Below are positions 22,181 through 49,168 of a stretch of DNA of 54,435 bases, piece after piece (position 1 is the first letter of the stretch; each line of letters opens with the position of its first letter). The DNA is from a virus (lineage: Duplodnaviria; Caudoviricetes). Under the pieces are notes generated by a model. That model made no database searches, was not told the origin of the DNA, and saw only the letters and a program-made list of their open reading frames with translations. The position numbers were made by a program, and so were the translations under genes. The stretch lies in IMG/VR virus record IMGVR_UViG_3300028070_000001, positions 1 through 54,435 of that record. One strand, written 5' to 3'.

Positions 22181-23502
22181 ACGTGGGAAGGATTCCCACC
22201 ATCTTGGTAGAAATCACCAGTTGCTAGCCCACCTGTAATTGCTGCTGCGTTATTGGCATAGACTGGAAGGCCAACCACGGCCAGATTGCTGTGAGGAGTC
22301 GTCGTCCCAATACCTAGAAAGCCAGTTTGGCCCTGAAATATAGCTACATTTCCCGCCTTTCCGTTTGAGATGATTAAATCCCTAAACTGCGTTATTCCGT
22401 CAGCGTAGCCATGATAATTGAGATACAGAGAACTGTTTGCATTGACGCCATAATTGGAATTAAGTGTGTTTTCTGCAGATAAATAAACCCCATATCCTTT
22501 CTGATCGTTGACTTTGAGAGGAATAGGATTCGTGACGTTATTGTTCTCAATATCGAGATTCCCGGAGAGATTTACTGTGGGGGCCGCAACGGTTCCTGTG
22601 AAGGTAGGTGAAGCCTTGGTAGCAAGCGCTGTTAGAAGAGTCCCTGAGTCTGCGACTTGCCCGCCTGTCCCGGTAAAAGTGGCTACATCTCCAGTCGTGC
22701 TTGATGTGGGTCCAGTTGTCAGCCCTGCGCCGCTACCCCCAACTGCCGAAATTACACCACCGCTTGTAACTGTAATCGTCGTTCCGTCAGGCTCAACCGC
22801 GCCCAACGCGGAAGTTGTTGCGATGGGAAGTTGCGCGGGGGTAGCTGTTCCGCTTATGTCGGTAAATGCGGGTTGCGCTTTACTAAAAACACCCGTAATT
22901 GCGTTATATGCACTGATCCACTCATGGGCTATAGATGGTGTATCCTGCGGAGGAACAGGAATAACTACCGCATAGTAATTGTTTCCATCGTAAGCTATTA
23001 TTGCGGATTGTCCTTGTGCGACTGGCATTGATGTTGATGCTAGGTTATTAGGATAGCTTATTGTCCCCGCTAAAGGAGTTACGGTGACAAGCCCAACTCC
23101 AAAGTTTATAATCACGCAGTACCACGGTAGTTGGATAGATGGATTTCCAGAAAGACTAACTGCGACAGGAGAAGCGTCTTCAAATAGTATAAAGTATCCG
23201 TAGTCTTGTTGTGCTGTCGTGTAAGTTACATTTCCAATCTGATTATTAACCCCTCCTATTGTGGATGTGTATGCACTGGAGTTATTAGTGACATTTTCTG
23301 TGCTTGATGTACTGTTTATAGTTTCGTTCACGGTTTTTATGGAATTAGTATTATTATCAATTTGAGACTTTAGAACAGGAACTGCGTTTTGTGCGTCTGC
23401 TATTGAATTCCATAAATTTCTTATCACATACTGATGCTCAGGAGCCATCTTTGCAATGTGAGCTTCAAAAGGGAACCGCGAATTGGTAGGAGTAGTTGTC
23501 AT
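22165..23502 (-). CDS. Tail fibre-like protein
   Basis: Thr/Gly-rich beta protein with FLGIGTTTP fibre motif; start MTTTP at 23502. Confidence 0.65.
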   Translation of the reverse strand: MTTTPTNSRFPFEAHIAKMAPEHQYVIRNLWNSIADAQNAVPVLKSQIDNNTNSIKTVNETINSTSSTENVTNNSSAYTSTIGGVNNQIGNVTYTTAQQDYGYFILFEDASPVAVSLSGNPSIQLPWYCVIINFGVGLVTVTPLAGTISYPNNLASTSMPVAQGQSAIIAYDGNNYYAVVIPVPPQDTPSIAHEWISAYNAITGVFSKAQPAFTDISGTATPAQLPIATTSALGAVEPDGTTITVTSGGVISAVGGSGAGLTTGPTSSTTGDVATFTGTGGQVADSGTLLTALATKASPTFTGTVAAPTVNLSGNLDIENNNVTNPIPLKVNDQKGYGVYLSAENTLNSNYGVNANSSLYLNYHGYADGITQFRDLIISNGKAGNVAIFQGQTGFLGIGTTTPHSNLAVVGLPVYANNAAAITGGLATGDFYQDGGNPSHVCVVQ

Positions 23503-23522
23503 GGCACCATCTACAGTATACC

Positions 23523-23703
23523 GTGAACTACCCACGACTAAAGTAGTGGGCTTCGTGCTTCAACGGCCTGAGCGTTTGAAAAAATCCAAACGTCTTATCA
23601 AGCCTCCACACGCAGTAGCCTCTGTTCCGGGGGCCAACTACAGTGTACCAGAAAACGAAACGAAAGTCCATTCATCCCATGATTAAAATCTTGGGTCTTC
23701 TGG
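23523..23703 (-). mobile_element. Non-autonomous IS200/IS605 derivative (181 bp) retaining a TnpB omega-RNA-like scaffold
   Basis: TTTAT then left-end hairpin CCCAAGATTTTAATCATGGG; right end GAAGCCCACTACTTTAGTCGTGGGTAGTTCAC; internal GCGTGTGGAG...GAAGCACGAAG. Confidence 0.75.
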
Positions 23704-23715
23704 ATAAACATTAGC

Positions 23716-23747
23716 ATAAAATATGGCGACCCGAAAGCCGCCATATT
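23716..23747 (-). terminator. Intrinsic terminator closing the RAMP-like operon and array
   Basis: AATATGGCGGC-TTTCGG-GTCGCCATATT followed by TTAT. Confidence 0.8.
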
Positions 23748-23759
23748 CCTTGCCTATCT

Positions 23760-24180
23760 ATTCTCCTCCTGACCACTCCTCTCCGTCCATACTGCACCTT
23801 TCCCAACGAAACCTGCGTTACTACACCGTACCGGAACCTACCGTCCTCATCGTTCCACAACTGTCCATCCTAAACTAACGCGACCTGCCGTTAATGTCCT
23901 AGACAAACCTTTGCGTTCCTCGTCACTCCTTACCTGCGATGCGGAACCTTTCCAATCCCCGCCACGCCGCGCCCTTGCGCTCGTGTCCACGACTGACCGT
24001 ACCTGCGATTCCAAACACAGCCATACTCAACACAACCGCCCATTCCAACCATACCTGCGGTTCGATTCCCAACCCGATCAATCCTTACCTACGCATCCTA
24101 ACAACACCTGCAACGCCTTTCCGAGACGGACCCTACCACCCTTATCGATCCATACCTGCCGCACCAGAACCAACTCTCCA
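23760..24180 (-). repeat. Non-coding array of seven GCAGGT-initiated units with 5-nt GGN-NN periodicity
   Basis: GCAGGT at minus-strand starts 24159, 24111, 24058, 24006, 23937, 23888 and 23816. Confidence 0.85.
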
Positions 24181-24182
24181 GC

Positions 24183-24617
24183 TTACTCAGCAAGAGCCTT
24201 ACGGATTTCCTTGATTACCAACGACAACTCTTTCAACCGAGAATATCTTTCCTCAAAACGACGCATATCCTCCTGCGCGTCTGCAAGAAGTTGAGCCTTG
24301 TATTGCCGATTAGAAAGTACCGCAACTGTTTCTCTGTACCCTCCACCATCGTTTTCACGATCTGGCGTGAGGCTGCAAAATACACGAAATGATTGATCTT
24401 TCCCATCCAATTCGATGTATTGAATTGTTGTGCGAATCAATTGTCTCGCTTGCTGTAGACGATACTGATTAGCCGCTTCAGAATCGTCCCACGTAAAACG
24501 AGTGTGCAGCGGAGAATTTACGGGACGGGCTGATTCAACCACATCTTCTGGTTTCAACAGCCCATCATTCTTCGCAGCGATTGTTCGGAGTTCTGAAATA
24601 ATCGCTTCTGTTGCCAT
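24183..24617 (-). CDS. Accessory protein of the RAMP-like operon (LHxxFxWDDxxAAxxYRLxQARxLI motif)
   Basis: 144-aa ORF coupled to the upstream gene by TAATG overlap. Confidence 0.75.
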   Translation of the reverse strand: MATEAIISELRTIAAKNDGLLKPEDVVESARPVNSPLHTRFTWDDSEAANQYRLQQARQLIRTTIQYIELDGKDQSFRVFCSLTPDRENDGGGYRETVAVLSNRQYKAQLLADAQEDMRRFEERYSRLKELSLVIKEIRKALAE

Positions 24618-25285
24618 TATTTCGCCTCCTCAATCTTAAACAATCCCCATCCCATTCCAGCAGAAGACTTTGAATCAGGACGCCCCTCACAAAGCCCAAC
24701 CTGTTCTCCTACGCGCATGAGGAGGTTTGTCACATCAGTAAGGCTGAAAATGTCGGCATCAAAGCGTATGCGAATAACTGCTTTCCATTCATCCCACATC
24801 GGACGAATACGAATATCACATACTCCGGTTGCATTGCGGACGGCCATTTTGACAGGACGTGGTTCGCCTTCTGTAATGCGAACGAGCGGAGTACCTTCGT
24901 CGCGGTCAAAGCCATCAGCCTCGATAAAGACGCTCAACTTTCCAAGTGTCATTTTGAAGTTCACAAGGCGGCAAGCTGAGATCATCGCATTACGGAAAGC
25001 CGATGCAGGGAGTCCACACCATCCCTCACGACTAACGTGCTTTGCTCCCTCATAAAGAGCGTCAAAATCTTTCGATTCTCGCTTTGCTCCCTTTTTCGCC
25101 TGACTTCCAGCACGTTGCCGAGATTCCATATCTTCAAGGGCTTTTTGCGGGAATTTATTAATGACCAGAGGGGCCACGCCGTAGATGTGAAAAACTCCGA
25201 TTTGAAACTTCGGAGGCTTGATCTGCACAACCTGCTGCAAATCTCCGCTGTTCTGCTTCTCTTTCGCTTTCATGTGTTTTTCCAA
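24617..25285 (-). CDS. RAMP/Cas7-like RNA-binding protein
   Basis: IYGVAPLVI beta strand, GLPASAFRNAMISA helix, RPxWxEW, C-terminal Gly-rich loop GEQVGLCEGRP...GMGWGLF; likely start MKAKE at 25273. Confidence 0.65.
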   Translation of the reverse strand: MEKHMKAKEKQNSGDLQQVVQIKPPKFQIGVFHIYGVAPLVINKFPQKALEDMESRQRAGSQAKKGAKRESKDFDALYEGAKHVSREGWCGLPASAFRNAMISACRLVNFKMTLGKLSVFIEADGFDRDEGTPLVRITEGEPRPVKMAVRNATGVCDIRIRPMWDEWKAVIRIRFDADIFSLTDVTNLLMRVGEQVGLCEGRPDSKSSAGMGWGLFKIEEAK

Positions 25286-25296
25286 TATGCCCTGAA

Positions 25297-25449
25297 TTAG
25301 CGAGTGTCGGATTTGGTTTTACGTGGTCGGTCCCAGTAAGGTGATTTGCACTCAGCGCAACGAAGTGGCTTCTCTCCACTCGCACTGCTCCATTCGTGCC
25401 CACACCTACTGCAAATCCAGATCACTACCTTCTGTAATCGCTGTGGCAT
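25297..25449 (-). CDS. Small zinc-ribbon protein, 50 aa (CSRCGHEW...RCAECKSPYWDRPR)
   Basis: Translated by hand; leaderless start after the promoter; not in the ORF track. Confidence 0.75.
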   Translation of the reverse strand: MPQRLQKVVIWICSRCGHEWSSASGEKPLRCAECKSPYWDRPRKTKSDTR

Positions 25450-25455
25450 ATTGTT

Positions 25456-25483
25456 ACTATACACCCCCGGTGTCCACTGTCAA
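25456..25483 (-). promoter_or_regulatory. Sigma70-like promoter of the inserted operon
   Basis: TTGACA-16 bp-TATAGT, 6 nt upstream of the ATG at 25449. Confidence 0.7.
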
Positions 25484-25614
25484 GTAATATTTCTACTATT
25501 TCTTCGTTTTCTGTTTTGCTGTCCATTTAGCGCACGAGGCGCAGAGTCCACCATCAGGTGGCAAGTGATGTATCGTACCGCAGCGTGTGCATCTTCTTGG
25601 AGTTACTGGGTTCT

Positions 25615-28600
25615 TCAACCTTCTCCTCCTGCTTCTCCAAATATAGGTGTTGGCTGATATTCCGCAGACGATCCCCATGCTCTCAAATAGAAGCAGCCTC
25701 CTTGGAAGTTCAAAACAAATGAGACACTTGACGAAAATTGTGCAATGAGCAGCTTCCACTTTGCAGCACTTGGCTTGAAAAAATACTTCGTCAACTGTCC
25801 ACTTGTGCTTGGCAGTGTGACTGGTTGAGGAGCATAAGAACCGTTTCCTTCATCGGCGACATAAAAAGTCAAATTTACTGTGCTTGTCGATGAGTATTCC
25901 ACGACAGCCATTCCACAATGCATAAATCCGCGTCCACCAAAGGCAGGAGTAGCCACGGTGCCAGTGATCGTCTCCGTGCCGCTACTTGTCAGTTGGCGCA
26001 CGGTACTATCTGAGCATCCTACTAATACTCCTTGCTGACTTTGACCTTCATTTGCGGCATGAATCGTCGCGTTAGGAGTATATGTGTCTAGAATCCAACC
26101 CATCGCTGCTTCGTCAAAGACAAGCGTATGAGGATTTCCATCGGTTCCAACGTAATCCCAGTACATAAATCCGCTATTATAAGAGAACCTCTGTAAATCT
26201 GGTTTCGTATCGTCTGGAGGATAGATTGTCACTCCATTCCTTGTTATCGGATGTGGATGATTACTAGAGTTATCAGAATCTTCTTGTGGAAATATAGGAC
26301 TAAGCGCATCGTCGGTAATCGACTTTGACGACGATCCGTAAGGTGAAATATGAATCCCATCATCTACGCGAAAATAGATGTTTCCCCCACCGGAAACACA
26401 TACGCAGCGTGGAATATAAAGACCTCTAGTAATTGACGATTCCTGCAACGTCCATGTTGACCCTGTTGTTCCTGTTGCTGTTGCAGTAGCGCTCGAAAAA
26501 TTAGGCATAATCAACCATCCGCGCTTGATGGAGAACAGAACTCCTAGTCCTACACTTATTGCACCATTGACGAGTGGTTCCGAAGGATCAGTAACATCCT
26601 GCTGATTAGTGTCAGGAGCAGCATCAAGGTTTGACCCTTTGCTCCAATATAGAGTACCGGGCCTTAGTGGGTCTCCTACAGCGAAAGCATAGTTTACGTT
26701 GTCAGTTGGACCCCACATATAAGGCAACGGCTGCGCTGCAAGAATTGGCTCTGGTATTTCATAGGCTACACCTGATGCGTCAGCAACTCCAGGAATCGTT
26801 ACTTGAGTTACATACCCAGTGGGAAGATAAATTCCCTTATCAACAAACGTGACACCTCCGCTAATCGTAGTTCCACCTGATTCACTAAATGTAGGTGTTC
26901 CGATTGCTTGCGATGTTCCAGACACCGTTACTAACTGATAATGTCCAGCAGAGTCAAGAATAAAGAAATTCAATGGATATAAATAAGAATTCTGGAAAGA
27001 CGCAGCGGTTGGACGTGCTATAAATGTATAGGAAAGAGATGTTGGAGAACCAATCAATATCTCCGTTCCAGATAACCATCTTGGACTAAATCCTAATGCC
27101 GATCCTCCTATCGCTCCACCGGAAATCCATGTAATCACACCTCCTGATACATCGCATACTCCTCGTTGTGGAAGGTCGATAGAGGGGAAAGGTTCATAGT
27201 TGTCATAATCGAGTGTTTTGGTTCCGAGTTCCGTATCAAGCAATGAATCGCTGATTGGGGTGTTTGTCCCAGGAGTTGCACCAAGATCGTCATTCGGTCC
27301 TGTGGCTACATAGGTAAATTCCGATGTAACAGAGTCAAGACGGTAGTAATCTACAACATCTACCTGCGGATCGTTAGACCATAAAGACGTGACCGTATTA
27401 GCCAGAACAGGAATAGACTCAGCGGTTGATTCTGGAGAGGGATTAGATTGCGCTCCTGTTGCGGAACTGCGATAGCAATATCGGTATTGAACTTGCTGTC
27501 TTATATTTGAAGAAGTCGGAGGAATAATAGTTGGACTTTCTCCCGGTTTTGGAGAAGCTGTGATGAGCAGAATTCTTCCACTGTGATACCAGTAGTCATA
27601 GTCAACTTCTATTGGATAAATACCAGCCGAAGGAACAGAAACAACGACCGTGGTAGTCTGATAATCTCCATCCTCTCCTGTGCTCTCACGGTTAACAGGA
27701 AGTAATGGATAACCTCCAACTACTGTAATAGTCTGTCCTTGAGTGGATACAATGCTCGATGTTGCGGATACTAACTTTACTCCTCCTCCTATCCCCCATA
27801 TCATGTTGTCATGTGAAGTAAGGACAAATGTATAATCTCCTAATGCGGGAAAGTATATATTCCCCGTTAAACAAAAGTTAAAGTTCTGATAGTATTGGTT
27901 GTTAGCATATGTGGTTGTAATTGGCGCTGAGAACACAGGAATACTACCTGTCACAACACTCTCAGGGCTTAGCTGAAACCATTGCATAGCTAATAATTTG
28001 GTTCCTATGCCTGGAAGTTCAGGAATTCCGTTTGTAAATGTTGCATCAAATATAAGAGAGTTTCCAGATGTACTTCCATCGGCACTTGAAGTTGATCGTG
28101 TTGGTCCACTACCGCCAGGATCATCAGGATTCTTCCATATATACTGATTTTGAGGTCCTGCGTTAGGAGAATCACCCCAGTAATAAGCTGTCAGAGAACC
28201 AAGTAGTGAAGTGACAGACGGAAGAGCGTTTGTTGTTACCGTTCCTGAAATAGTTATTTCCCCTCCTCCAATAGAACCAGTGTTGGAAGAATAAGTGTTT
28301 CCCAAGGAATTCATGCCAATCTGAAGGGCTACTGCTCCAGATGGAACGGTAATTTCTACTCCAATATTCGCTCCAATATCTACTACACTAGGAATATAAA
28401 GAGGGGCAACTCCTGCCGCCATCACGTCGCCAGATGAATCAACAAATGCTCCTATTACATACGATGCTACGCTTGGATGAGTTGACGATCCTAATGTTTG
28501 GAGGAATTGACCGGGGTATCCCGGTACGCCTGATCCAACTCGCGTGTGAGCACTTGGGCTTGAAATATCCGCAAGTCCAGCCTGTGTAGTTATGGTATCC

Positions 28601-29376: not shown

Positions 29377-30741
29377 TTACCTGTTCTCCCTCGCGTCTTC
29401 CGGGCCATTTTTACTGTTATAGCGGTTCATCGAGCGCTCTTGTGCCTGTCCACGCTGGTCCAACACGTCAGAGTACAAACCAAGCGACCGAAGCCTGCTG
29501 TTCTCCGCAGAACATGCCATGATTGCTCTCTTCTCAAGTTCGAGTGCTGATTTCCATTCTGCTCCTCCGAGCTTAAAAGAAGCTCTGGCCTGACTGAGGT
29601 CCATTATTATGTCAAGGTCCGAGGGTGGTATTTGCAGGTAATCGCCATCGGCCACGGGAATTGGCATATTTCCTAAAACGGTCATCCCGGTAGACTGTCC
29701 AGTTGGAGAAGCGATCATGTCAATTCCACCCGCCACAATGAACGGCCCAAATCCGCTAGGATCAGAATCCCATTCAGGACTGTAATTATCCGAGCTTACA
29801 ATTGAATCTATGCTTACAGCCTGTCTGTTTACTTGTCCTAGCATAATCCACGGAGCCTTCTGCATCAGGTTTAGACCATCCTGATACCTTTTCATACAAT
29901 ATTCTGCACGCTCCTGATCTTTAGCCTCTGATTCTCTTCCTAGCAAGTCTGCTAACGCTCCCCATTCAGCAACATAACTGAAATCGTCTGGTATACCCAA
30001 AAGTGTGCTCGTAGGAGGATTAAATGACGCTCCTTGCTGTAGCACAATCGCTTCATACGTTCCCGGTTGGTCAGGAGGAATGTCTACATCAAACGCTAGT
30101 GGAGGCTCAGAGGAAAGACTATACGTGTTTGGTGTTCCTGACGGCTGCTGGTAAAGTGGAGACTCGTAGAACTCCTGAGCGACCGTATCGTCACGGTAAA
30201 GCGTTACTGGTGGAGGTGGCTGTGTTGCTGGCGAAACTACGGAAGGAATATAGCGTACACGCGCAACGTCAATCACGTTCGATGGAACATATGTCCTGCG
30301 AGTGTTTGGTGTGATAGCAATTCCCGTGAGCAAAGCCTGATTGCAGTTGCTCACTTGAATCATTTCATCCCTACGCCGTTGCAGGGCTTGGGATATATCA
30401 CTAATTGAGAACTGATTTGTTCCTGTCCATGGTCCACCAGCGCAGTTTGGCTCTAACAGCATGTATTCCATCTCGGAATAGCAATAACTATCAGTTACGC
30501 TTCTTATTCTTGGTGAACCTGTGAGCGTAGCAAGAGATGACCAAACATTAGTAGAACTTGAATTATTGAAAGTAAAATCTTCCTTCCACCACCATACCAA
30601 GGAGTTGTACTGCCTAAGCGCTTGTTGTATATAAAATTTCAGTTCATTGTCACTCCAGAACGACATCGACGGGTCTGCCAGACGTGCAGCAAGCTGTTGC
30701 CGCGCCGTCAAGAACGTCGTCTGGTTGAATGAAGTTGGCAT
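29377..30741 (-). CDS. Head-tail adaptor / tail tubular protein
   Basis: FWSDNELKFYIQQAL...IPDDFSYVAEWGALADLL pattern; synteny. Confidence 0.55.
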   Translation of the reverse strand: MPTSFNQTTFLTARQQLAARLADPSMSFWSDNELKFYIQQALRQYNSLVWWWKEDFTFNNSSSTNVWSSLATLTGSPRIRSVTDSYCYSEMEYMLLEPNCAGGPWTGTNQFSISDISQALQRRRDEMIQVSNCNQALLTGIAITPNTRRTYVPSNVIDVARVRYIPSVVSPATQPPPPVTLYRDDTVAQEFYESPLYQQPSGTPNTYSLSSEPPLAFDVDIPPDQPGTYEAIVLQQGASFNPPTSTLLGIPDDFSYVAEWGALADLLGRESEAKDQERAEYCMKRYQDGLNLMQKAPWIMLGQVNRQAVSIDSIVSSDNYSPEWDSDPSGFGPFIVAGGIDMIASPTGQSTGMTVLGNMPIPVADGDYLQIPPSDLDIIMDLSQARASFKLGGAEWKSALELEKRAIMACSAENSRLRSLGLYSDVLDQRGQAQERSMNRYNSKNGPEDARENR

Positions 30742-31853: not shown

Positions 31854-32306
31854 CTATATTTCTTTGAAAAATACCTGTTCAGCAATCGTAGTCGCGTATT
31901 TTACCGCATTCGCGTTCCACGTCTGCGGGAATGGTACGATTTCTCCCGTAGGAAGCGTAATTGTTTTGTTCGTTTTGATTCCCTTGGGCGCATAATAGAG
32001 AGTCGATCCTAGAGTAATATCCTGCAATGAACCATTCGATGCCTGTTGAGCTAAGTATTGTGCCTCATTCCACGCGGAAAGGTCAGCACCGTGAGATTTA
32101 GATGGATCAACACTAAATTCGGGATCGCTTTTTACGCTCATCGACGTAAATTGCCATGGGGCCATAACTATCTCTTCGATGGTCTTACCGTGCTTCTCTA
32201 CCCTATTCTGCACGACGTTGATTATCGAGGTCATTCCTGGTATCTGGCCACGACGATTCTCTTTCCAGCAAACAGTTGCTAAAAGCGTAATTTCTGCGTC
32301 TGTCAT
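31854..32306 (-). CDS. Endolysin, SleB/Hydrolase_2-type cell wall hydrolase
   Basis: LLATVCWKENRRG...VVQNRV...PWQFTSM...GSTLYYAP. Confidence 0.8.
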   Translation of the reverse strand: MTDAEITLLATVCWKENRRGQIPGMTSIINVVQNRVEKHGKTIEEIVMAPWQFTSMSVKSDPEFSVDPSKSHGADLSAWNEAQYLAQQASNGSLQDITLGSTLYYAPKGIKTNKTITLPTGEIVPFPQTWNANAVKYATTIAEQVFFKEI

Positions 32307-33885: not shown

Positions 33886-35019
33886 CTAATCGGTAGCGAG
33901 TATACAATTCTGTTTTGACGCAAGGCTTTCCCCAAGCCTTAAAATGTTTAGTGCCGCGTTATGGTCACGTCCCAAAGATAATCCACATTTCGGACAATCG
34001 TGATGCCTGTCCCAGATTTTCTTTGGTACTTTCTCCCCACAACCACTGCATATTTGTGTCGTACCGCGTGGATTGACTGGTATTACCCATTTCCCGGCGC
34101 ATTCTGCCTCTGAATTGAGTTTGAATATCAGTTGTCCCCATGCAGCATCCAAAATACTCTTCGCAAACATTGATTGAACCATGTTACTAATCTTTAAGTC
34201 TTCATGCGCAATCAGATCATACTCCCCTACTAACTGCTTTGCTACTCCTGTCAAGTACGAACTTCTTAGACCAGAAATCCGTTGATGGACCCTGCGAAGA
34301 TGCTCACGCGCCTTAATACTGTTCTTACTTCCTCGAATCTTACGAGACAAACTACGGTTCGCTTTAGCTAGTCTATCCTCTTCTTTTCTAGTCCATCGCG
34401 GATTAGGTATCTCTGTTCCATCGCTTAAAGTTGCAAGTGTAGTCAAACCAACATCTATACCAGTTGCATTACGAACTGCCGCTTTCTCTGGTGCTGGCCC
34501 AATGTCACATACTACCTGACCTTGCCACTTGTTCCCTATGCGCTTGACGCGGAATTCTTTAGGGGTTCCTTTAATTTTGTAGTGCGTCTTGAATTTGAAA
34601 CCACCTATGCCGCCAATTACAAACTCGTATTTTGACATCTTAAAACTATAAGAGTCAACAGTAAACGAATCGTATCTCTCAGAGGAACGAAAACGAGGAT
34701 ACCCCGGAGTTTCTCCACTCTTTACCCTCCGATAAAACCCATCAAACGCTCTCTGCAACCGACGCAATGGATCACGCTCAATTGCAGATGGCAACTCAGC
34801 GTACTCAGGAAACCAAGAACGAAGTGTTACTAATTCAGATTGCTGGTCGTAATACGTCAATGCAACATGGCTGTTTTCCCATTCCAACTTACGTTGATCC
34901 AACGCCATGTTGTAAATCGCACACAACTGGTCAAGAAGACGATCAAGACGATTATCTTGATTCTTCGTCACCTTTAATCGCATTGTGTACGTGCGCATCA
35001 TTAGTTCATTATACCACAT
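33886..35019 (-). CDS. tnpB: RNA-guided endonuclease TnpB (IS200/IS605 family), no tnpA
   Basis: N-terminal RTYTMRL...YN region; RuvC GIDVGL, HEDL and RDHNAALNI; Zn finger CSGC/CPKC; likely start near 35001. Confidence 0.92.
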   Translation of the reverse strand: MWYNELMMRTYTMRLKVTKNQDNRLDRLLDQLCAIYNMALDQRKLEWENSHVALTYYDQQSELVTLRSWFPEYAELPSAIERDPLRRLQRAFDGFYRRVKSGETPGYPRFRSSERYDSFTVDSYSFKMSKYEFVIGGIGGFKFKTHYKIKGTPKEFRVKRIGNKWQGQVVCDIGPAPEKAAVRNATGIDVGLTTLATLSDGTEIPNPRWTRKEEDRLAKANRSLSRKIRGSKNSIKAREHLRRVHQRISGLRSSYLTGVAKQLVGEYDLIAHEDLKISNMVQSMFAKSILDAAWGQLIFKLNSEAECAGKWVIPVNPRGTTQICSGCGEKVPKKIWDRHHDCPKCGLSLGRDHNAALNILRLGESLASKQNCILATD

Positions 35020-40123: not shown

Positions 40124-42343
40124 TTAGTGAACTCTCCGCGCCGTAATACTTCCGTAGGCCGTGACCGTTCCCGCCGTGAATGTCGCTTCAGTCACCAGAT
40201 AAACCGTTGTCCCTGCGGACACATTGATGATCTTGCGCGGAATCACAAGGCTCGTCTTGAAGGATGTTGTTGCAATCACCGCAGGCGTCGCGTAAAACAC
40301 CTCTGTGCCGTCGGTGGGAAGTGTAGCAGTGGTGGTATTGATACCGCTCTCCCAAACTGCCGATACGGCGATGCTTGCCGTAGAAGCCACGTAATCGACA
40401 GAGCCTGAAACATCCCAATCACCCGCCGTCAAAGCAACCGAAGTCACATTGGCTGGCGTTCCGGTGGTCAGAGAGACAGCCGATCCTGAAGGAATCAGCG
40501 AAGACAGTGGCTGTCCAATATAGCCCGCGCCCGCCGCAACTCCGTCAATTTCCCCCGCGATGTTCACCTTGGAACCGCTGACAGTGTTTCCGATGCCAAC
40601 TGTTTTGACCCCGGTGGCCGTCGTGGCAATGGTAACGGCCTCAGCGCCTGTGCCAGGAGCAATCGCGATTGTGCCCGTCTGTGCTCCGGTGCCACCGATA
40701 CTGATTGTTCCGGTGGTCATCGCGGCCCCGATAGACACCGAACCGCCAACCTGCGCGTTGGCAATCTGAAGGGTCGTTATGCCAGTACCGCCTGCGATGA
40801 TTTCCGTATTCGTTCCGCTGCTGGAGCCGAGCGTCATGGTCCCGGTCTCGGCCGTGCCGCCGATAGCGATAGCGCCCGTAGTGTTGGCGGCAGCAATCGT
40901 CACGGGAGAGGCACCTACGGTAGTAAGCGTATATCCGAGAGTCCCAACCTGCTCTGTGATCCTCGTTGCCCCGGTTGTGTTGCCTATGGTCACCGACTTG
41001 GCGTATGCCCCGGTTCCAAAATTGGCTGAACCAGTTGTGCCACTGTCAACAGTGAGTGCGGTTGTCGAGGGAGAGGTGATAGGCCCCATAAACATTGTTG
41101 GTCCTTGATAACCAGGGACCAGCGTGCAATAGGACGAGATCGGCGCAAGGTTGAATCCGTAAATTACATAGGTCGTCGTACCATTCGCGCAGGAGATACC
41201 GGTTCCCGTTCCAGCAATCAGGCCGCTGATTGCGTGGGCTGTTGCCAGGGTATTCGCGGTCGGAAGATTGATGTTTGCTGTCCCAGCCACAGTGCTGAGC
41301 AGTCCACCATTCAGTAGAAGCTGACCGCCGTTCGTCATATCAATGTTGTAGCCGGAGCTTTTTGTCATGTTCGGGTTGTAGAGCGCAATGAGTGCGCCCG
41401 ATCCGCCTGATGCAATGGTCTGGCTACCAGTGATTGCTTCCCCGTAAAGCAAAGCGGAAGTTGAAACGCCCCCAACTGTAAAGATATTGCTGTTGCCGCT
41501 CAGATTCGTTCCAAAAGCATGAAGATACCCCTGAGTTACGTTCACATTCCCAAGGAATGCCCCGCCATGTTTCTCGCTGCGGTCCGTACTGGCATAGTTG
41601 TACGTCACAGCCGCGCCATCGATCAGATCATAGGAGATGATCTTTGCCGATATTGTAAGACCTCCGGTCGGGGTCCACGTCGAATTATTGCCGTAGATTG
41701 TAAGAGGAAGCGCAGGCAGAGTTACCGCGCTGGGTGCCGTATAAGACGCGTTCGGGCTTGAAAATACCGACACTAGGCCGGAACTTGGGAATCCCGCAAC
41801 CAGAGTTGGAAGTGTCTTGTATGGACGCTCGATTGTGCCGTCCGCTGTATAAGTGTCCGTGCGGTTGCCATCCAACGTAAGCATGGCTGTATCGGTTGCC
41901 GGGTAAACAAAAGAGGTCGTGCTGGAGGCTGAGTTGTACGGCTGTCCTGCGCCAGATGCAAATCCACCAGAAAGATTATTAGCTGTTCCCGCACTTCCTC
42001 CAAATGATGTCCAAGTATTCGTAGCGGAGCAATAATATGGGGTAGAGTTGGACGTGTTGAAATACGTTTGTCCCGTTGAGCACGTTATAGGGGCAGTCGC
42101 GTAGTTTCCCATTGAAGTCTGGGGGTTCCCATTTGCATCACATTGCAAAGGCGTAGACTGGCCTAAACTGTTCATCCCATACGCTTGAACTCCCGGATAA
42201 TTAGTAGGGGCAGGAATCCCAGCTTGCAAAAGAGGAATTATATACCCCGATGGATTCACGCAATAAAGAGTGGCAGAGAAGGACGGTTGCCCATGAACCA
42301 TCATCGGAATCAACAACATCGACAATAGAATAAACTTCTTCAC
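40124..42343 (-). CDS. Tail fibre / beta-helical virion protein
   Basis: ADGTIERPYKTL motif and Gly/Thr/Ile repeats. Confidence 0.6.
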   Translation of the reverse strand: MKKFILLSMLLIPMMVHGQPSFSATLYCVNPSGYIIPLLQAGIPAPTNYPGVQAYGMNSLGQSTPLQCDANGNPQTSMGNYATAPITCSTGQTYFNTSNSTPYYCSATNTWTSFGGSAGTANNLSGGFASGAGQPYNSASSTTSFVYPATDTAMLTLDGNRTDTYTADGTIERPYKTLPTLVAGFPSSGLVSVFSSPNASYTAPSAVTLPALPLTIYGNNSTWTPTGGLTISAKIISYDLIDGAAVTYNYASTDRSEKHGGAFLGNVNVTQGYLHAFGTNLSGNSNIFTVGGVSTSALLYGEAITGSQTIASGGSGALIALYNPNMTKSSGYNIDMTNGGQLLLNGGLLSTVAGTANINLPTANTLATAHAISGLIAGTGTGISCANGTTTYVIYGFNLAPISSYCTLVPGYQGPTMFMGPITSPSTTALTVDSGTTGSANFGTGAYAKSVTIGNTTGATRITEQVGTLGYTLTTVGASPVTIAAANTTGAIAIGGTAETGTMTLGSSSGTNTEIIAGGTGITTLQIANAQVGGSVSIGAAMTTGTISIGGTGAQTGTIAIAPGTGAEAVTIATTATGVKTVGIGNTVSGSKVNIAGEIDGVAAGAGYIGQPLSSLIPSGSAVSLTTGTPANVTSVALTAGDWDVSGSVDYVASTASIAVSAVWESGINTTTATLPTDGTEVFYATPAVIATTSFKTSLVIPRKIINVSAGTTVYLVTEATFTAGTVTAYGSITARRVH

Positions 42344-48520: not shown

Positions 48521-49168
48521 TTAGGCAATAGCTACTAACTTATTAGCTTCGGCCTGTGACTGCTCCTTTTGATTTTTCCTGCGTTGTTGACGGACAAGAC
48601 GTTTGTGGTCCTTAAATTCTGGCTCTTGCCCTTTGGTTGAACGCCATTCTTTTTCTCTTTGGCGCTTGTGCTCTAAAGCCTTTTGTCGTTGCTGTGCGTC
48701 GTATTCGTAAATCCTATTCCATAAGCTCTCATACACCTGCGATGGACCAAGATTTACATCAAACCCTATTAAATCATCAACCAACAAAAGAAACTCTCCT
48801 GCTGGAGTAGTTTCTACTTGTAATTTCCTGCGTGCAGTTAAAAATGGATAGATCAACGCAATAAAAGATCTTGCTCTATCCCCGCAAATTTTCCAATGAT
48901 GAATTGGGCAAATATTTCCGTTAAAAGTTCTGTTGTAGAGGCTTATTCTTCCGCCGAACAAATCCCGCAATCGATAAAGCAACTCTGGGTCTTTTTGTGG
49001 AACACAGACCGCAAAAGAGGTACTAGTTTTGGTATTTCTTGTTGTTACGCAGCTTCCTTCGCCTTCGTATATACCAGCCGCCCAAGCAACTTCGATAGCG
49101 GTTGGACGCCTTACAGCATCCAACCCCTCACGGTCTTTCTTGACGATTTTGTAGTCGCGTTCCATCAT
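48521..49168 (-). CDS. Free-standing LAGLIDADG homing endonuclease
   Basis: AWAAGIYEGEGS motif; QKDPELLYRLRDLFGG; LIYPFLTARRK. Confidence 0.8.
   Translation of the reverse strand: MMERDYKIVKKDREGLDAVRRPTAIEVAWAAGIYEGEGSCVTTRNTKTSTSFAVCVPQKDPELLYRLRDLFGGRISLYNRTFNGNICPIHHWKICGDRARSFIALIYPFLTARRKLQVETTPAGEFLLLVDDLIGFDVNLGPSQVYESLWNRIYEYDAQQRQKALEHKRQREKEWRSTKGQEPEFKDHKRLVRQQRRKNQKEQSQAEANKLVAIA

Follow-up and report, generated by a model that had tools for sequence, protein, structure and literature searches.

A probable phage-borne VIPR operon with a GG-periodic array, from a clade other than the characterised type II

Systems named VIPR, for Viral Interference Programmable Repeat, are phage relatives of clustered regularly interspaced short palindromic repeats (CRISPR) and were published in 2026 in a preprint that distinguishes seven types (bioRxiv 10.64898/2026.04.26.720920). 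In the main text of two preprints, the Vipr protein of Escherichia phage SUSP1 is described as a helical filament with one protomer per GGY-NN pentamer, in which GGY is hidden and NN is exposed (10.64898/2026.04.26.720920, 10.64898/2026.04.26.720927). VIPR arrays are defined there by at least four tandem YNNGG units, and the authors state that internal degeneracy is frequent (10.64898/2026.04.26.720920). Here we describe a compact minus-strand operon that runs from 25483 to 23713 in a complete 54,435-bp virus record of a peat-soil phage (IMGVR_UViG_3300028070_000001; this whole stretch is the window below). We read the locus as a phage-borne VIPR system that lies outside the characterised type II, in another clade, with a probability of about 0.85. 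The clade is set apart from type II because its accessory family differs, its arrays lack a 3' tail and its units meet at 4-nt GGCA junctions. A first-pass annotation of this DNA had likened the locus to the VIPR systems; they are in print (10.64898/2026.04.26.720920), and the window protein is homologous to theirs. The system class is already described, and the window locus founds no new one.

In overall plan the locus resembles VIPR type II, as represented by SUSP1 and a Pseudomonas fulva prophage. Each has a homologous RAMP (repeat-associated mysterious protein) with a single RNA recognition motif (RRM) and a G-loop, and a two-gene core with adjacent or flanking same-strand GGY/NN pentamer arrays. 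Both are phage-borne and have no cas genes or CRISPR repeats. Units in the window hold 9–14 repeats, compared with the 9–16 given in the main text for type II (10.64898/2026.04.26.720920). The SUSP1 locus itself, in NC_028808, consists of minus-strand genes of 195 and 146 aa with GGY/NN tracts on either side.

On profile comparison, the 222-aa protein of the window is a Vipr RAMP, homologous to the experimentally characterised SUSP1 Vipr. Profile–profile alignment with hhalign joined the two Vipr families at 99.1% (E 5.8e-19, 187 columns), and the window family profile matched PDB chain 36pp_D, 'SUSP1 Vipr protein', in hmmsearch (E 4.5e-6). Between the two single sequences, identity is detectable only over a 43-residue C-terminal stretch (23%). 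The 222-aa protein has no match in Pfam, and in PHROGs it falls into phrog_4652, which has no assigned function. Its family is large, with 6389 proteins at E <= 0.001 in a collection clustered at 90% and 2158 representatives when grouped at 50% identity.

The predicted fold agrees with this assignment. An AlphaFold (AF2) model built from a 99-sequence alignment had a predicted local distance difference test score (pLDDT) of 93.8, and the single-sequence AF2 fold (pLDDT 40) was set aside in its favour. Foldseek returned 36 matches to the model in the PDB at E <= 0.001; each of the 33 listed at this threshold is a chain from a CRISPR effector complex, for the most part type III Csm/Cmr, plus type VII. 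The top rows of the VIA aligner are Csm3 (Z 11.4), Cmr4 (Z 11.1) and the Cas7 domains of gRAMP (Z 10.3), followed by other Cas7, Cas5 and Cas6 structures. The gene had been called RAMP/Cas7-like in the first pass, and both the Csm3, Cmr4 and Cas7 matches and the homology to SUSP1 Vipr bear this out. With the Cas7 backbone (Csm3, Cmr4, Csf2, Cas7-11 domains) the protein has in common an RRM core, a Gly-rich loop and, presumably, guide binding at a fixed period; the structural matches have Z scores of 8–11.4 over ~120–158 aligned residues at a sequence identity of 8–15%. It differs from Cas7 effectors in its period, 5 nt rather than 6, with two of five bases expected to read the target. In contrast to class 1 CRISPR-Cas, the system lacks Cas5, Cas6, Cas10 and Cas8 partners as well as CRISPR repeats and adaptation genes.

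The SUSP1 residues reported as GGY contacts are retained in part. The Gly-rich loop that had been noticed at the C-terminus of the 222-aa protein, GLCEGRPDSKSSAGMGWGLF, holds the invariant G193, G201, R202, G210 and G214 of the family. Four residues of SUSP1 Vipr, R138, R179, D177 and H17, are named as GGY contacts in the main text of the structural work (10.64898/2026.04.26.720927). In our alignment R138, in the thumb (the VIPR element that flips the GGY bases), and R179 are identical in the window protein (R161 and R202), while D177 is replaced by E200 and H17 by N43. The model has a beta-hairpin at 133–150; the match of R161 to the thumb residue R138 comes from the sequence alignment rather than from three-dimensional superposition. 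The window protein is ~25 aa longer than SUSP1 Vipr, and just past the GRP motif its family has an 8-residue insertion that holds a conserved GWG. An in-frame ATG at 25273 offers an alternative start for vipr; the product would then have 218 aa, as in the closest relative (P0001).

Downstream of the two core genes lies an array with a 5-nt period in GG, as the first pass had claimed. GG–GG pairs at lags 5, 10, 14, 15, 19, 24 and 29 number 21–22 each, against ~10 expected from 1000 dinucleotide-preserving shuffles (z +3.9 to +4.4), and pairs at lags 2, 7, 12, 17 and 22 are depleted (z -2.7 to -3.6). Occasional 4-nt steps account for the drift of the lag (15 to 14, 20 to 19); these had also been noted in the first pass and are real, 7 of 80 in the step parse. 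When a sliding detector was run over the whole 54,435-bp genome, its only hit was 23716–24175 on the minus strand; the plus strand gave none. The same detector flagged 78/79 SUSP1-type VIPR loci, used as positive controls, and 0/32 unrelated loci. The step parse returned the seven units proposed earlier, with the lengths given for the first six (Table 1), and all seven open with GCAGG at the upper coordinate of each unit. Six successive canonical steps occur in U4 (GGCGC GGCGT GGCGG GGATT GGAAA GGTTC). The NN string of U4 reads AC CA GT CA GC AG GC GT GG TT AA TC, and that of U5 reads AA GT GA AC AA TT TA CA.

The array is a property of the family and not of this phage alone. A same-strand GG-periodic array adjoins the vipr homologue in 59/62 related loci of IMG/VR and in 51/54 loci of bacterial assemblies; the viral loci without one are L029 and two loci truncated at the gene. 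The strand of the GG signal is always that of vipr. In 3060 GGxxxGG instances, GG is followed by C in 59% and by T in 20% (Y 79%), and the next two positions are near-uniform. This composition is the published GGY/NN motif. Homologous loci thus keep GG and vary NN, as the guide hypothesis of the first pass had anticipated.

Family units also obey a length rule. Of 298 distinct units, 236 are 5n+4 nt long, with 44, 49, 54, 39 and 59 nt the commonest lengths. The logo of 483 junctions reads GG-C-A-N / G-G-C-A / GG-Y-N-N, and the delimiter is therefore one step of 4 nt within a lattice whose other steps are 5 nt. A legend of the VIPR report describes 'staggered vrRNA arrays', in which neighbouring vrRNAs overlap by 1 nt, so that one's end is the next one's start (10.64898/2026.04.26.720920, fig. 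S18). The junctions of the clade fit this description if GGCA/GG is read as GGCAG plus GGYNN with one G shared, and so do the 5n+4 lengths. The arrays of the clade are probably the 'staggered' arrays of that report, an identification made from the legend text alone.

Whole units are gained, lost and exchanged between closely related phages. Phages with a 93% identical Vipr have U3, U5 and U6 in common with the window and lack U1 and U2, and other units stand in place of U4 and U7. The contig comparison covered four of the metagenome runs that hold the locus. In three DNA runs, contigs are joined across exactly 101 nt (24048 to 24150), which deletes U1 and U2. Another joint in contigs from DNA runs, from 23751 to 23812, removes 60 nt of U7, and loose contig ends at 23812 and 24159 run on into units of relatives L002 and L008. 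Array variants that differ by whole units therefore co-occur in the samples of three DNA runs. Such turnover is the behaviour of a guide repertoire, unlike that of coding sequence. With its period of 5 and with units swapped whole between phages of near-identical Vipr, the array is not a conserved coding sequence, in line with its earlier description as non-coding.

The second core gene separates the clade from type II. Homologues of the 144-aa protein (phrog_15946) are present in 60/62 viral and 46/54 cellular loci of the clade, before or after the array, and in 0/79 SUSP1-type loci. Conversely, vap1 of SUSP1 was found by jackhmmer in 77/79 type II loci and in 0/62 viral loci of the window clade. 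The 144-aa protein was considered as a vap1 relative and not retained, the similarity being not significant. The two accessory proteins are near-equal in length, 144 aa here and 146 aa in SUSP1 (L063 28031-28471, minus strand). Both families have a G-x-G-Y-R motif at a similar position (residues 91–95 and 74–78), with no further similarity detectable, and remote homology or convergence may account for it. A search for the function of the 144-aa protein gave no Pfam match, a best E of 0.31 among PDB sequences and, in the Atlas, unnamed viral clusters only.

The zinc-ribbon gene at the head of the operon is of another kind. The ORF (open reading frame) claimed in the first pass is present, with its 50 codons and two CxxC pairs. 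Its best Pfam match is Zn_Ribbon_YjdM (E 2.5e-4), which like all its other matches lies below the cut-off. Homologues stand upstream of vipr in 8/62 related viral loci, the closest relatives only. Judged by this distribution, the gene is lineage-specific and no core part of VIPR, so its place in the operon stands and a place in the core does not.

The remaining parts of the operon, proposed in the first pass as a self-contained unit of promoter, three ORFs, array and terminator, were all found there on the minus strand (Table 1). The promoter TTGACA-16-TATAGT is predicted to drive the operon. The start of the accessory gene overlaps the stop of vipr by 1 nt (TAATG). A leader of the same ~23 nt precedes the first GCAGG in relatives L001, L002, L006 and L008, by a by-eye reading. 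The terminator had also been proposed, and folding recovers it; the hairpin proper spans 23749–23718, and a consensus terminator scanner did not list any terminator. Rfam gave no match within 23500–25700. The claimed absence of CRISPR components likewise stood up, with no CRISPR-like tandem array in the whole window and no cas family in PHROG and Pfam scans of 44 and 6 ORFs of the phage genome.

Table 1. Features of the VIPR-like operon, in order of transcription; coordinates are those of the window
Feature	Coordinates	Strand	Basis or remark
Predicted promoter, sigma-70-type, TTGACA-16-TATAGT	25456..25483	-	11/12 matches; sole promoter-like site found in 23400-25800
Zinc-ribbon ORF, 50 aa, two CxxC pairs, first operon gene	25297..25449	-	sub-cut-off Pfam zinc-ribbon matches
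vipr, 222 aa, TTG start, single-RRM RAMP protein with C-terminal Gly-rich loop	24617..25285	-	homology and fold model
vap-like accessory gene, 144 aa, conserved GGGYR motif	24183..24617	-	phrog_15946, E 3e-22
Short leader, 23 nt, vap stop to first unit	24160..24182	-	near-identical in close relatives
Unit U1, 48 nt, 9 steps (one of 4 nt)	24112..24159	-	step parse; missing with U2 in strain variants and in L002
Unit U2, 53 nt, 10 steps (one of 4 nt)	24059..24111	-	step parse
Unit U3, 52 nt, 10 steps (two of 4 nt)	24007..24058	-	step parse; identical in L002, L006
Unit U4, 69 nt = 5x13+4, all steps 5 nt	23938..24006	-	step parse
Unit U5, 49 nt = 5x9+4, all steps 5 nt	23889..23937	-	step parse; L002, L006 differ by 1 nt
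Unit U6, 72 nt, 14 steps (two of 4 nt)	23817..23888	-	step parse; L002, L006 differ by 3 nt
Unit U7, last, runs into terminator	23750..23816	-	step parse; strain variants swap it or lose 60 nt
Intrinsic-terminator-like 14-bp hairpin, then UUUAU	23713..23749	-	folding: -28.8 kcal/mol, z -4.8

If the locus works as its homology suggests, one promoter would transcribe the zinc-ribbon gene, vipr, vap and the array, with transcription ending at the hairpin. The array RNA would yield about seven vrRNAs of 9–14 pentamer steps, punctuated at the GCAGG junction; at the level of the family this junction would be 'GGCA', a step of 4 nt that displaces the pentamer lattice by a single base. Vipr, by analogy with its SUSP1 homologue, would bind with one protomer per GGY-NN pentamer and form a helical filament, hiding GGY and exposing NN. 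The exposed NN dinucleotides could then pair with double-stranded DNA at NN-x-NN-x spacing, and binding would silence the transcription of a rival mobile element present in the same host. The conserved 144-aa partner would assist. The view of the units as processed guides that read gapped targets, already put forward in the first pass, is carried over from the published type II work, and we infer it for this clade by that analogy.

Several observations weigh against the VIPR reading. According to a legend of the VIPR report, GGY-to-GGA and similar substitutions abolish silencing by SUSP1 (10.64898/2026.04.26.720920, legend S12), and the third position is often A in the window array, in which it differs from type II. 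SUSP1 W178, described as stacking on the second G (10.64898/2026.04.26.720927), is replaced by an invariant Gly, G201, in the window family; it is speculation that the conserved GWG of the insertion takes over from the stacking tryptophan. In the window, units abut directly at GCAGG without the ~40-nt structured 3' tail of type II, where hairpin tails stand between the tracts of the SUSP1 vrRNAs (by-eye reading). Between the two accessory families, hhalign aligned 8 columns (GxGYR) at a probability of 9.7%. The window array is also more degenerate than its family. GG heads 42/65 steps in U1–U6 by hand count, and the family value of 79% comes from a strict lattice of canonical units and is not an identical measure. 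A pyrimidine follows GG in 13/21 window cases, compared with 79% in the family, and the 7/80 4-nt steps compare with 68/2956 non-5 steps in the family. The first pass had already judged the triplets more degenerate than GGY/NN, and both GG occupancy and the pyrimidine share are indeed below those of the family. Four of the six full units (48, 53, 52 and 72 nt) break the 5n+4 rule, which U4 and U5 keep, and the G that precedes GCAGG is kept at 1/6 window junctions. The only contig from an RNA library (151 nt, 25138-25288) lies within vipr and leaves the array uncovered; it says nothing either way. Finally, searches under the 1-nt-skip rule, run on the phage genome itself, on 1.7 Mb of related loci and, by exact matching, on IMG/VR and JGI metagenomes, yielded no target above chance.

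Much of this degeneracy would follow if the VIPR locus were decaying or weakened, with its genes intact and with single-base deletions and GG losses leaving some or all guides non-functional. The GG occupancy and post-GG pyrimidines below the family level are as such decay would predict, as are the units that depart from the rule kept by 236/298 family units and the searches in which no targets were found. Yet vipr and vap are full length and conserved, with promoter and terminator both intact, and the 5n+4 rule is kept by U4 and U5. Two of the off-rule units are also found in L002 and L006, where U3 is unchanged and U6 differs by 3 substitutions, and are therefore maintained rather than private damage. 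Because off-rule units recur in relatives, and because the authors of the VIPR report note in its main text that degeneracy is frequent, we rate decay as a minor rival and think it improbable.

The target searches bear on a second alternative. The gapped search of NN strings suggested in the first pass was run for U5 and other units and gave nothing above chance; the scans of the collections demanded exact matches and would miss real targets with mismatches. In the phage's own genome the best matches were 17/26 positions for U4 and 14/18 for both U5 and U7, within the range of shuffled guides (means 17.0 for 26 and 13.4 for 18 positions; maxima 19 and 15). Family guides of 8 or more clean steps, 235 in all, were compared with 1.68 Mb of related loci and scored the same as shuffled guides, with a median of 0.78 and a maximum of 0.94 in both. 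The exact 24-base pattern of U4 had 0 matches in IMG/VR, and the 16-base pattern of U5 had 32 matches there in unrelated contigs, about the estimated chance number. For the 18-base core of U4, JGI metagenomes gave 16 matches, the best at 22/26 positions. One conserved motif holds the matches in L239, L242, L245 and probably L237, and ten consecutive U4 NN pairs are matched in L239 and L242. The U4 matches in JGI metagenomes were nevertheless judged to be chance, since the search seed itself fixed 18 bases and the 16 matches are heterogeneous. Read as opposite-strand codons, the U4 NN string corresponds to the conserved motif D-F-K-P-T-A-L-A-C-T, which in L239 lies within a Pfam AMP-binding enzyme.

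Guides of relatives gave the same picture. A guide from the Azohydromonas locus L211 had 0 matches at <= 3 mismatches in four isolate genomes. A Bradyrhizobium guide had 3 one-mismatch matches in 401 genomes of the genus, with 0 for the reversed control, about the number estimated for chance. Two guides of Mycobacterium phage Brocalys had, in IMG/VR, 0 matches and 1 match, the latter in a 43% GC contig and judged to be chance.

With no target found for the window guides, the array RNAs could instead be decoys or competitors that load or redirect the Vipr of other phages rather than guide silencing by their own. A precedent exists in satellites, whose stand-alone vrRNAs are described as redirecting phage VIPR to decoy sites (10.64898/2026.10.15.759431). 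However, those decoys, as far as that text presents them, are solo vrRNAs without vipr, whereas the window array shares its operon with its own vipr and vap, and the same arrangement holds in 59/62 and 51/54 related loci. A decoy role is thus very improbable. A locus with no guide system at all, in which the GG stretch is a nucleic-acid element with a structural role (G-quadruplex-prone, for instance) or a product of the two Pro/Gly-rich plus-strand ORFs of 127 and 91 aa that run across the array, and in which the RAMP-like protein has another RNA role, is barely credible: the three-base-spaced GG runs could in principle form two-tetrad quadruplexes, but period 5 is incompatible with coding, whole units are gained, lost and replaced, the GG strand always follows the vipr strand, and homologous proteins are reported in the main text of the VIPR work to bind exactly such RNAs (10.64898/2026.04.26.720920).

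Within the VIPR reading, the junctions allow a further, tentative suggestion, which we hold to be rather unlikely as a whole. The array may be punctuated by a one-base lattice slip (a 4-nt GGCA step, units of 5n+4) instead of a structured repeat or ribozyme. The same junction may serve as the recombination point at which whole guides are gained, lost or swapped between co-occurring strains. The internal 4-nt steps might then be functional sub-punctuation into shorter filaments, and not decay. If this were true, the lattice-slip junction would give cassette-like diversification of guides without Cas1/Cas2.

The locus is a complete natural VIPR operon, if the preferred reading holds, in an environmental phage of peat and permafrost, and a member of a very large clade. 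The 5n+4 lengths, the GGCA junction, the GGGYR accessory family and the unit-exact turnover between strains are not spelled out in the Results or legends of the VIPR report, and its tables may already list the clade. The value of the locus lies in its annotation and in a lead on the parsing and diversification of staggered arrays.

Metagenome runs with the locus amount to 23 rows from 19 studies, all labelled peat or permafrost except one small-share bioreactor run; three of the rows carry a possible-source mark. Relatives turned up in assemblies with the labels Planctomycetota, Verrucomicrobiota, Alpha- and Gammaproteobacteria, Acidobacteriota, Cyanobacteria and Bacteroidota, among others. 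These cellular homologues do not pin the host, the closest being at most 66% identical and spread across many phyla. Cultured phages have relatives too. The same protein pair, together with GGCAGG-punctuated arrays, is present in Mycobacterium phage Brocalys (gp45/gp46) and Cyanophage Cy-LDV1 (g34/g33), and matches to the Vipr family include 25 Mycobacterium phage and 5 Gordonia phage records. In Brocalys (NC_031262, 32504-33957), gp45 is the Vipr homologue and gp46 belongs to the same accessory family (hmmsearch E 2e-25). Upstream of gp45, 237 nt of 'intergenic' DNA form a GGY/NN array punctuated by GGCAGG. In Cy-LDV1 (BK059895), arrays flank g33 on both sides. The pair genes of both phages are all annotated as hypothetical proteins.

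The surroundings of the operon were only partly recognisable. It had been placed between tail genes, and nearby ORFs do match an SU10 adaptor (29377-30741; Pfam E 6.6e-6) and a tail fiber (40124-42343; phrog_11393); the flanking ORFs of 456 and 1252 aa have no informative family, and the placement thus has partial support. Two further ORFs match an endolysin-like N-terminus (31854-32306; phrog_938) and an HNH endonuclease (48521-49168; phrog_5046), and all four are on the minus strand. Of the 44 scanned ORFs, 31 have no PHROG at E <= 1e-5; the phage is therefore poorly related to described phages. A putative ORF of 87 aa (25496-25759, minus strand) ends just upstream of the VIPR promoter and overlaps the 3' end of the 1252-aa ORF. 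It has no Pfam family and contains a second CxxC...CxxC pattern (RCTRCG...CASCAKW) besides that of the zinc-ribbon ORF. Further along the same strand, a TnpB-like ORF of 377 aa (33886-35019) matches Pfam OrfB_IS605 (E 1.4e-22) and a Cas12f1-like TNB domain (E 2.5e-19), as well as HTH_OrfB_IS605 and phrog_506 'transposase' (E 7e-87). A further gene from an RNA-guided nuclease family, the second, is thus present in this phage.

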